In this document: positions 4,685-8,179 of the stretch, piece after piece | Position numbering within the stretch: position 1 is the stretch's first letter | How the letters are laid out: each line of letters begins with the position of its first letter | DNA from: a virus | Taxonomy: Duplodnaviria > Heunggongvirae > Uroviricota > Caudoviricetes | Virus record (IMG/VR): IMGVR_UViG_2531839446_000020 | Length of the DNA stretch: 34,098 nt | Direction: 5' to 3' (one strand) | The notes under the pieces: generated by a model | Databases searched by the model: none | What the model was told of the DNA's origin: nothing | The model's input: the letters and a program-made list of their open reading frames with translations, nothing else | Translations under genes and position numbers: made by a program

Positions 4685-6970
4685 TCAACGAATACTGATG
4701 CCGGAAGCGGCTTTTTTGGTCACAATCACCGTACAGTCGGTGATATTACCTGCCCACTGATTGCCTTTATGGAAAACCTTAAACTCCAGAGTGACGCTTC
4801 CCCTGCCACTCGGCATATCAATAACCGCACTGTAGCTACCGGGAATGGCCCCTTTAGTTTCTCTGGATGCGATTAATACACCGTTTTTGCGAACTTCAAA
4901 ACCATAACCCGTGTATCTTGTACCTCCCGGGTTATTACCACTTCCCGGATAGCTATACGCTATTCCGTTAAAGATAATGGGCGGAATAATGATTTGACGG
5001 TCAAAGTTATGATCATCGCTGATGGTGACTGTAACCGTCCCGTTTGGTGTTTCCGTGTTACCCCACGTACCAGCCTGTTTCGGAAATGATTTGGATACAG
5101 CTTTAACGAAGTCACCTCTGACCTGAGTCGCCTCCAGCATGCCCTTAATCGTACAGTTTTCATTTACCGTGACATTGTTGAGCGTCCCGGCGTTCGCATT
5201 CACTCTGCCACTGATATCCGCATTTTTAGCGGTCAGCTTTCCGTCCGGAGTCAGGGAAAATGCCGGTGGATTTCCACCGCTGGTAATGGTCGGGGCCGTC
5301 AGGCGTTTCAGGAACACGTCGTTCATGAATATCTGATCGCCCTGCCCAACAAACATCGGCTTTGTGTTGCCATTCGCAGGATTAATCATCGCAATCCTGT
5401 CTGCCGCCAGCAGCACCTGACTCTGCATGCCGTCAGGGGTGTTCTCAATACCGGCACCAATACCCGCGATATAAAGGCGTCCGTCCTGCATCTGCTGCAG
5501 CTTCACAGCCCACATGCTGTTCAGGTTATTATTTGTATCAATCTGAACCTTCTGTATCTGCTGAATTGCCGCACTCTGGTCTTCCAGTTTCTTATTGACG
5601 GTCTGCGTGATTTCATTGCTGACATCCGTAATGGACGTCCTGATTTCAGCCAGGTCAGGCGCAAGCTGACCGTTATCAATCTGCGTCCACAGCTCCTGAG
5701 CCAGATGGGTTTTCCCTATCTCGCCTTTGAAAAAATCCAGATAGCCGGATGCATCATCACTCGGCTGACCAACAGCCTCCACGAATGCCGATTTGCCAAC
5801 GGTGTTCACACTGCGAACGTAAAAATAATAATCATGGCCCGGTTTGATATTGATACTGGCGGCTATCCAGTACAGCGCCGTACCAAGATAGCGGGCTGTG
5901 GTTTCAACCTGCCTGATATCGGTAATCCGCTTTTCCGAGAACCAGAACTCAAACTGTACCGTCGGATCATAAACCGCAAGATGCGGCGTGGCGGTTATCT
6001 GAAAATAGCCCGGTGTCAGCTCAATCCGAGACGGTGCTGCCGGTGCGGCAATCCGGAACGATACCGATGCCGGATCGCCCTGCTGCCCCCAGGCATTTGC
6101 CGCCCGGACTGTCAGCCTGTAGTTTCCCAGGGCCAGTTGCGTGAAGCGGTATGTGGTTTCCGTCGTCCGGGCCGTGCTGACCAGCCGCTCACTGCCGTCG
6201 TCTGCTGCCACAGTCAGGCGAAGCATAAAGCTCACACCCTTCACCACCTTCGGCGTGTCCCATCTCGCCAGCACCTGATATTCCCCGCTGTCTGCAGTGA
6301 CTTCTGCGATCAGGTGCTGCACCGCTGGCGGCGTGACGCCATTCACCGTGCTGCTCAGGTCGCCGTCAAAGTGCGCCCCGTTATCCACGATGGCTTCTTT
6401 TTCGGGTACATGCTGCACGGCGGTGATGGCATACGTGCCGTCGTCGTTCTCACGGATACTCACGCAGCGGAACAGGCGCTGGCGCAACGTCGGCAACTTC
6501 AGCCCCCATACGCTGTATTCAGCAACGCCGTCAGGAACACGGCTCACTTTCACCTTCACGCCGTCGGTGACGGACTGAACCTCCACGCTGACCGGACTCC
6601 CCTGCCCGTCAACCAGGCTTATCAGCGTGGTGCCGGAAGATGGCAGCGTGATTTCACGGTCGAGCGTCAGCGTCCGCGTCTGGCTGTTTACCGCCAGCAC
6701 GCGCCCGCCGGTGCTGATACCGGCATAGTCATCATCGCAGATTTCAATGACATCGCCCGGTACATGGCGAAGCCCTTCGGCACCCACGCTGAAGTCCACG
6801 GTCTGCGTTTCCAGCAGTTCTGTTTTAATCAGCCACAGCCCGGCGCGGTGTGCCTGCCCCCGGCTGGTACAGCCAAAAGCATCCATCTTCGTGACGTTAC
6901 GACCGTAACGGGCAATGGCCTGCGTGTCCTCACAAGCTCTGTGCCGTCTCCCAGCCATTGTCCGGGTCAA
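4685..6970 (-). CDS. J: Tail tip host-specificity protein J, C-terminal 761-codon fragment (gene interrupted)
   Basis: Translation from [47 protein letters not shown] to the end is collinear with lambda J as I recall it. Same frame as the upstream fragment but separated by a TAA and a locally scrambled frame. Confidence 0.8.
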
Positions 6971-6991
6971 TCCAGTTCACCTCAACGGCAT

Positions 6992-8179
6992 TTATGGCGG
7001 TCCTTCAGGCGCTGAAGCTGTAGCGGAACGCGCGCCATCATCCGGCATCACCACATTACTGCGGTTATAGGTCCACACCTTATCTGATGGTCGGTCCTGC
7101 ACGAACGTCAGCGTCTGCCCGTTCCATACCGGCATACAGCGCATCGCCGAGCAGAAATCACTGAGCACATCCCACGCCTTGCGCTGCGTGGTCAGCCAGG
7201 CATTACAGGTGATGCGCGGCTCCGTGCCGCCAAAGCCGTCCGGCACCGACTGGTCGCAGTACTGGCCGATGACATACAGCGCCCATTTATCCACATCCGC
7301 CGCACCAAGACGTTTCCCCATGCCGTAGCGCGGATGGGTCAGCATATCCCACAGACACCAGGCCGGGTTGTTGCTGTATGCCGGTTTTAACGTTCCGTCC
7401 CAGATACCGCTGTATTGCCGCGTCTGCGGGTTATAGTTCGACGGCACCTGCAGAATGCGCCCGCGAAGATGATAATTACGGCTCACCTGCTGGCTGCCGA
7501 ACTGCTCCGAGTCCACCTGCACGCCGACCAGTGCCGTGTTCGGGTAGCACTGTTTCACATCGATGATTTCGGTGTATGACGACCAGAGCGTTTTGTTCTG
7601 CAGCTGGTCTGTGGTGCTGTCCGGCGTCATCCTGCGCATCCGGATATTGAACGGGCGCGGCGGCAGGTTATCCACCACCACCGAGGCCAGATACTGCGAC
7701 GTGGTTTTGCCCTTAATGGTGATGTCTTTTTCCGTCACCCAGCCACCGTTACGTTGTATCTGAACCAGCAGGCGGACTTCCGACGGATTCCGGTCACCCT
7801 TTGAGGTGGTTTCCACCAGTGCCTGCACGCCGAAAGTAAAACGCAGACGGTCAATGTTTGCCGACGTGATGGTCCGGGTGATCGGCGTGTCATATTTCAC
7901 TTCCGTACCCAGCACCGTCTCGGAGCCGGAGGATTCAAAGCCCTCAGGCGGTGTCTGCTCCTGCTCACCTGCCCGGAACACCACCGTGACGCCGGAGATA
8001 TTGGTATTCCCCTCACTGTCCAGCACCGGCGTACTGTTCAGCAGCACGCTTTTTAATCCATCCACCGGACCTTCAACCGGCCCTTCGCTGATGGCATCGA
8101 TCACACTCAGCAGCTGCGTGGACTTCAGGTTGTCCTTCGCTTCGCGCGGGGTATGCCCCTTACTGCTACCTTTACCCAT
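6992..8179 (-). CDS. J: Tail tip host-specificity protein J, N-terminal 395-codon fragment (gene interrupted)
   Basis: MGKGSSKGHTPREAKDNLKSTQLLSVIDAISEGPVEGPVDGLKSVLLNSTPVLD... matches the lambda J N-terminus; ends at TAA 6992-6994 straight after ...NVVMPDDGA. RBS GAGGA upstream of the ATG at 8177-8179. Confidence 0.8.
   Translation of the reverse strand: MGKGSSKGHTPREAKDNLKSTQLLSVIDAISEGPVEGPVDGLKSVLLNSTPVLDSEGNTNISGVTVVFRAGEQEQTPPEGFESSGSETVLGTEVKYDTPITRTITSANIDRLRFTFGVQALVETTSKGDRNPSEVRLLVQIQRNGGWVTEKDITIKGKTTSQYLASVVVDNLPPRPFNIRMRRMTPDSTTDQLQNKTLWSSYTEIIDVKQCYPNTALVGVQVDSEQFGSQQVSRNYHLRGRILQVPSNYNPQTRQYSGIWDGTLKPAYSNNPAWCLWDMLTHPRYGMGKRLGAADVDKWALYVIGQYCDQSVPDGFGGTEPRITCNAWLTTQRKAWDVLSDFCSAMRCMPVWNGQTLTFVQDRPSDKVWTYNRSNVVMPDDGARSATASAPEGPP

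Follow-up and report, generated by a model that had tools for sequence, protein, structure and literature searches.

Clustered single-base run-length changes in the J gene of an Escherichia coli RN587/1 prophage: probably a local artefact of a 454 assembly

The J locus and its broken reading frame

The window analysed here comprises the last 34,098 nt of contig ADUS01000021.1 in the draft genome of Escherichia coli RN587/1 (GCA_000188875.2), a position on the contig being that in the window plus 187,732. Called genes, Pfam matches and the annotation of homologous regions together give its prophage tail genes the lambda order: tape measure, M, L, K, I, J, lom and side tail fibre. J, placed like the lambda gpJ/TipJ gene after homologues of L, K and I and before lom, lies on the minus strand and is split into two open reading frames (ORFs; Table 1), both of which were returned by exact-sequence look-up as 'host specificity protein J domain protein' of Escherichia coli RN587/1. 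The gene is 96-98% identical to annotated J genes, and the top identity in a protein search with the C-terminal fragment was 98%.

The protein domains are divided correspondingly. A Pfam scan of the 395-residue fragment yields FNIII-A_GpJ and profile positions 1-54 only of Phage-tail_3, while the C-terminal fragment yields positions 100-162 of the latter profile together with Ig_J, Ig_J_second, Phage_Tail_Tip and Ig_GpJ_C. Over the fragments and the repaired protein, all these domains, which are those of lambda gpJ/TipJ, were found above the curated cut-offs; the difference from the lambda protein is that the window J frame, as deposited, is broken inside Phage-tail_3. Reversal of the five changes described below gives an open J of 1165 codons, 1165 aa being the length that J most often has in the top matches. 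In this repaired product Phage-tail_3 is whole (profile positions 1-162, 147.9 bits) and the other J domains are intact. The deposited sequence, by comparison with an uninterrupted J frame of about 1130-1165 codons, contains five indels and two in-frame stops.

In a preliminary description of this DNA, the two J ORFs were held to share a frame and to be separated by a single TAA, with pieces of J appearing between them in shifted frames before the original frame is regained. Three-frame translation of positions 7080-6850 reproduced the shifts: FRYSFSA and a 17-residue peptide share one frame, LKDRH lies in a second, and a 13-residue peptide is in the frame of the upstream J ORF. The final 12 residues of the N-terminal fragment (RSATASAPEGPP) are out-of-frame junk, whereas in the C-terminal fragment the true J frame is back at about 6925. 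The two ORFs are indeed in the same frame, but a single TAA does not describe what separates them, the upstream ORF's frame having two stops between the J pieces, TAA at 6992-6994, which terminates that ORF, and TGA at 6977-6979.

Nucleotide alignment to related J genes, the check proposed at the outset, showed the expected J sequence to be present and interrupted by five 1-nt gaps. The suggestion that at least five single-base indels in short homopolymers, with a net change of -3, cut the gene was borne out exactly, there being four deletions and one insertion. They do form a dense cluster, but the estimate of about 70 bp for its extent was too small: it spans 100 bp, its outermost indel lying 20 nt past position 7010, where the cluster had been thought to end. 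All five discrepancies are +/-1 changes in mononucleotide runs, and the runs hit are 2-3 nt long in relatives. In alignments with phage phi458, the complete E. coli genomes Z1323HEC0067 and DCE7, and the sister prophage L017 (see below), these five are the sole gaps in the 3.5-kb J. Across the 131 nt from 6915 to 7045 there are zero substitutions relative to L017 and likewise, by the arithmetic of the identities, relative to the best complete-genome matches. In E. coli DCE7, an IS66 insertion interrupts J.

Against the sister locus of L017 the five are the sole uncompensated indels in about 15 kb. The probability of five indels placed uniformly in about 16 kb sharing one 100-nt stretch is, by our estimate, of the order of 1e-8. 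The clustering is beyond chance.

Table 1. Positions in the window of the J fragments, the run-length changes and related features
Feature	Position	Strand	Source or remark
N-terminal J fragment, 395 aa	6992..8179	-	GenBank EFZ75638.1
C-terminal J fragment	4685..6970	-	mechanical ORF 761 aa from TTG 6970; GenBank 733 aa from 6886 (EFZ75636.1)
Cluster of five 1-nt homopolymer-length changes	6931..7030	-	nucleotide alignments
Change 1, CC>C	between 6930 and 6931	+ strand notation	alignment
Change 2, TT>T	between 6941 and 6942	+ strand notation	alignment
Change 3, TT>TTT	6989-6991	+ strand notation	alignment
Change 4, GGG>GG	7006-7008	+ strand notation	alignment
Change 5, GG>G	between 7029 and 7030	+ strand notation	alignment
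First allele switch in J	6878..6897 (J nt 1283-1302)	-	L017 vs LH13-b sites
gnsB private frameshift, T8>T7 (A8>A7 on coding strand)	24680..24687	-	best complete genomes
Intergenic change, A7>A8	25684		vs 98.9%-identical relative

Distribution of the changes among J genes and sister prophages

None of the five changes was found in 7,824 J copies from 4,284 complete E. coli genomes, and the best match there, 96.3% over 131 nt, is made up of five gaps and zero substitutions. They are likewise absent from the ten best of 101 phage records, each of these ten having a stretch of 204 nt as against the window's 201 (6880-7080). An exact 30-mer across indels 4 and 5 had 0 matches in the GTDB species representatives, where E. 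coli is represented by one genome. Among 153 billion gene positions, the 395-residue J fragment occurs on one contig only, which is that of the window itself. No identical prophage was found in 5,426 complete E. coli genomes, the best identities there being 96.8% for a 12-kb stretch and 97.5% for J.

Sister prophages were found by look-up of the window's 1024-aa tape-measure protein. L017 (GCA_033384875.1) and L018 (GCA_025585975.1) have an identical tape measure and the same gene order, including a 112-aa ORF before J. Look-up of this ORF was unspecific, returning 6,742 blocks. In both sisters J is intact, at 1137 aa each, and the lesion is thus seen neither in these independent assemblies of the sister sequence nor as an inheritance common to related strains or prophages. 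Over the 15,032 nt ahead of the cluster the window differs from L017 by one SNP and from L018 by two, with no indels in either comparison. Past the cluster the picture changes: starting 53 nt beyond the last indel, the window diverges from both by about 3% for about 1.6 kb, and is then identical again. Similar arrangements at 12 further places are represented by L017; the one with the split J has no counterpart.

Three further assemblies allow the rest of the contig to be judged. AFAF02000007.1 is 100% identical to the window over 13,782 nt and JH954337.1 over 12,129 nt, while C844-97 (AIBZ) has one SNP in 12,752 nt; no indels are present in any of the three. The near-clonal AFAF02000007.1 and C844-97 contigs stop short of J. 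Because these other stretches agree without indels with independent assemblies, the assembly is generally good and the defect is local.

This distribution bears directly on whether J might be a genuine, very recent pseudogene, in which case the frameshifts would be real, J would be truncated after residue 383 and the prophage would be without adsorbing particles. The sequence does stand so as deposited, and the base-for-base equality of the remaining contig with independent assemblies can be read as a sign that the assembly is to be relied upon here too. Decay is, moreover, frequent in prophage tail genes, and defective tail genes are common in real EPEC and EHEC prophages, which the window prophage resembles in being lambdoid, in carrying effectors (nleH, cif) and in having an interrupted J. 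However, the real defects of EHEC and EPEC lambdoid prophages arise as a rule from one event (an IS, a deletion or one frameshift) and are common to related strains, whereas the window J has five point indels private to one assembly.

The spectrum of the changes differs equally from that of natural decay, in which substitutions outnumber indels and indels prefer long runs: here five indels in 100 nt compare with 1-2 substitutions in the 15,132 nt that end with the last indel, and the runs are of 2-3 nt, lengths that are poor slippage substrates. A pseudogene would demand five independent +/-1 events within 100 nt, with zero substitutions there and 1-2 SNPs in the upstream 15 kb, and the outcome would be found in no other J copy and inherited by no relative. 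Set beside a sequencing platform that yields exactly this class of error, and beside a second private homopolymer frameshift in the window (in gnsB, below), it is a reading to which we give little credence. Were the changes real, an effector-carrying (nleH, cif) prophage of an O157:H8 EPEC strain would have been inactivated very recently, and the cluster would be an unusual case of frameshift mutations grouped at a recombination junction.

A functional role for the shifts was also considered, in which programmed frameshifting would carry translation across them, or they would form an on/off switch for J at a phase-variable contingency locus. The one point in its favour is that the net change of -3 regains the original frame, an outcome expected by chance in about one third of cases. 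The two stops noted above close the upstream ORF's frame, and no frame can be read through the whole stretch. With runs of just 1-3 nt, there is no slippery heptamer and no long tract, none of the five sites having a tract of more than 3 nt, and the arrangement recurs in none of the complete E. coli genomes compared. On these grounds recoding and phase variation were rejected, their likelihood being close to nil.

Sequencing platform, allele switch and origin of the changes

The RN587/1 genome rests on 454 Titanium sequencing of 8-kb paired-end libraries and nothing else, with Celera as the assembler (PMC3715677). It is in this respect a pyrosequencing product without polishing by any other platform. 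Indel errors in 454 data are nonrandom, depend on homopolymers and on the position in the read, and exceed 50% at some positions (Gilles et al. 2011, PMC3116506). The changes in J are like such miscalls in the platform of origin, in that every one is a +/-1 change in a homopolymer, in their nonrandom clustering and in their effect, one gene being cut into two ORFs that are rejoined by single-base repair. They differ in the shortness of the runs hit (2-3 nt) and in their density, five errors within 100 nt being denser than is usual in a consensus.

Since the source is 454-only, the changes are private and the sister J genes are intact, we conclude that the five changes are, very probably, a local consensus error of the RN587/1 454 Titanium/Celera draft and not mutations of the strain. 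The preliminary description allowed for a pseudogene or for poor assembly quality at this spot; it is therefore the second possibility that is favoured.

Comparison of the right-hand 11 kb of the window with a 98.9%-identical relative gave two single-base indels, both in long runs: the intergenic A7>A8 change at 25684 and a frameshift in gnsB, where a run of eight T residues appears as seven. Over the 181 nt around the gnsB run, the best complete genomes differ from the window by this one base alone, 56 records score 99% or more, and the shortened run is present in none of the 2,148 places searched. The gnsB frameshift supports the view that errors of the pyrosequencing type occur in the RN587/1 assembly.

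Some points count against a consensus error. At normal depth, 454 consensus errors are usually confined to long runs, so that errors in runs as short as 2-3 nt call for some special circumstance at the site. In addition, no independent assembly appears to display the exact repaired J allele intact, as judged from the lack of any exact copy of the repaired 1165-aa protein among about 15 billion proteins.

The allele structure of J suggests what the local circumstance may have been. The window J was compared with those of L017 and LH13-b at sites distinguishing those two. At each of the 42 informative sites as far as J nt 1282 it has the L017 allele, and it is of LH13-b type from nt 1302, beyond which the two types alternate, with switches near J nt 1600-1900, 2180 and 2950; in this mixed zone, about 10 SNPs private to the window fit neither type. 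The indel cluster (J nt 1149-1249) falls within the 150 nt preceding the first switch and ends 35-55 nt short of it. Most E. coli with a J gene have several, the median being 3 copies and the maximum 15.

The switch point may coincide with a boundary between sequence common to other lambdoid prophages of RN587/1 and sequence that is unique. In Celera and other overlap-layout assemblers, unitigs end at repeat boundaries and are joined there with thin coverage or by read ends. The assembler would have taken the mosaic boundary for a repeat boundary, and unitigs would have been joined there with few reads or read ends, leaving read support low at 6931-7030; the density of the errors itself would imply that local read support was very thin or poor. 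As homopolymer length is read in pyrosequencing from light intensity, a run may be miscounted by one, above all late in reads, and in a consensus built from very few reads or read ends several adjacent miscounts could persist. Thin coverage at a repeat boundary would in this way account for the miscounting of short runs that 454 normally reads well. The real prophage would then possess an intact J of 1165 aa, or one that at any rate lacks these frameshifts. Among J fragments at contig ends (330-500 aa), the break points are scattered, with no sharp break at the cluster, and this scatter gives slight backing to a repeat boundary at the cluster.

The same mosaic could have arisen in the assembly itself. 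As a sub-case of the consensus artefact, RN587/1 may carry similar J genes in two or more lambdoid prophages, and reads from these different copies may have been threaded into one J, the cluster being the first mis-join and the downstream alternation of alleles being then partly artificial. The alternation of L017-type and LH13-b-type blocks, with its switches from that near J nt 1290 onwards, would be the expected product, the repaired allele is seen nowhere else, and the multiplicity of J in E. coli would supply the copies. Natural J genes are, however, equally mosaic, the roughly 10 private SNPs of the mixed zone match neither allele, and the other switch points are free of indel errors, the frame remaining open for 733 codons. 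Nor was a second RN587/1 J copy retrieved; one candidate (P0092), in which the J N-terminus is fused at 100% identity to unrelated sequence, was discarded as belonging to another assembly. A chimera of this sort has some likelihood, but we consider it a small one.

The proximity of the cluster to the switch admits one more interpretation, namely that the five frameshifts are real and arose together in a single error-prone repair tract as gene conversion replaced the middle of J. Recombination and double-strand-break repair are known to be accompanied by frameshift mutagenesis, both as -1 frameshifts by Pol IV (DinB) in E. coli and as mutagenic gene conversion in yeast. The window changes are similar in being mostly -1 changes in mononucleotide runs beside a recombination junction, but the known per-site rates are far too low for five events in 100 nt, and such an origin is highly unlikely. 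If it were true, the cluster would be a mutational scar at a junction of prophage J alleles, and the event that altered the receptor-binding part of the protein would also have killed J.

Bearing on annotation

If the five changes are an error of the 454 consensus, they matter for annotation only, and EFZ75638.1 and EFZ75636.1 are to be taken as one J. On present evidence the RN587/1 prophage should not be scored as adsorption-defective, and the same caution extends to gnsB. It applies also to pseudogene counts from other 454-only drafts, above all near prophage repeat boundaries.

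J alleles and the neighbouring reading frame

Two alleles alternate in blocks along the window J, the lambda gpJ-type tail-tip gene: one is that of the sister prophages with intact J (L017, L018) and the other that of strain LH13-b. About 10 private SNPs are present in the mixed zone, and the exact sequence of the repaired protein, obtained by reversing the five single-nucleotide changes, was not found elsewhere among about 15 billion proteins. The alternation reflects natural mosaicism or, alternatively, an assembly that is partly chimeric. Real disruption of J does have an example in this prophage family: in E. 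coli DCE7, the nearest complete-genome relative of this prophage end, the gene is genuinely interrupted by an IS66-family element.

Between the gpI and gpJ homologues lies an ORF of 112 amino acids with no Pfam match. Identical copies are found in 6,742 blocks of the gene-position collection, every time in this same position, yet the protein is missing from three other compared loci (L015, L019 and L022) whose tail modules are otherwise similar.

Coordinates of the features discussed (in the window unless another locus is named)
Feature	Position	Strand	Location or basis
Cif-CdtC chimera, in-frame	1-1155	-	comparison with E. coli DCE7
Block-wise mosaic part of J	4685-6900		J nt about 1290-3495; allele comparison
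112-aa ORF	8246-8584	-	between gpI and gpJ homologues
gnsB T8>T7	24680-24687	-	comparison with complete genomes
A8 run (A7 in the close relative PCP06101)	25677-25684		intergenic, cspI / Rz-like gene
J interrupted by IS66-family element	L003 (E. coli DCE7) 22711-25653		near J 3' end

The Cif-CdtC fusion at the left end

The chimera, a predicted protein of 384 residues, joins residues 1-273 of the type III effector Cif to about 111 residues from the C-terminal end of CdtC. A deletion of 3,026 bp relative to E. coli DCE7 created the fusion and took away cdtA, cdtB and the 5' part of cdtC, along with tail-fibre remnants and the final 9 codons of cif. Judged by its sequence distribution, the fusion is a real, widespread allele, since the exact protein, annotated as 'cycle-inhibiting factor', is encoded on 56 contigs in assemblies from NCBI, Logan and ENA.

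Run lengths outside J and the end of the contig

A shortened T run leaves gnsB frameshifted. Over the 181 nt around this run the best complete genomes are identical save for one base, and a score of at least 99% is reached in 56 records; the shortened run itself was found in 0 of 2,148 places. The probable cause is a 454 homopolymer error, which would be the second in this window. For the additional A in the intergenic run, error and polymorphism are both possible.

The right end of the window (34098) coincides exactly with the end of contig ADUS01000021.1 (221,830 nt). The contig stops within the prophage early region, and the assembler therefore broke there, presumably at another prophage repeat.
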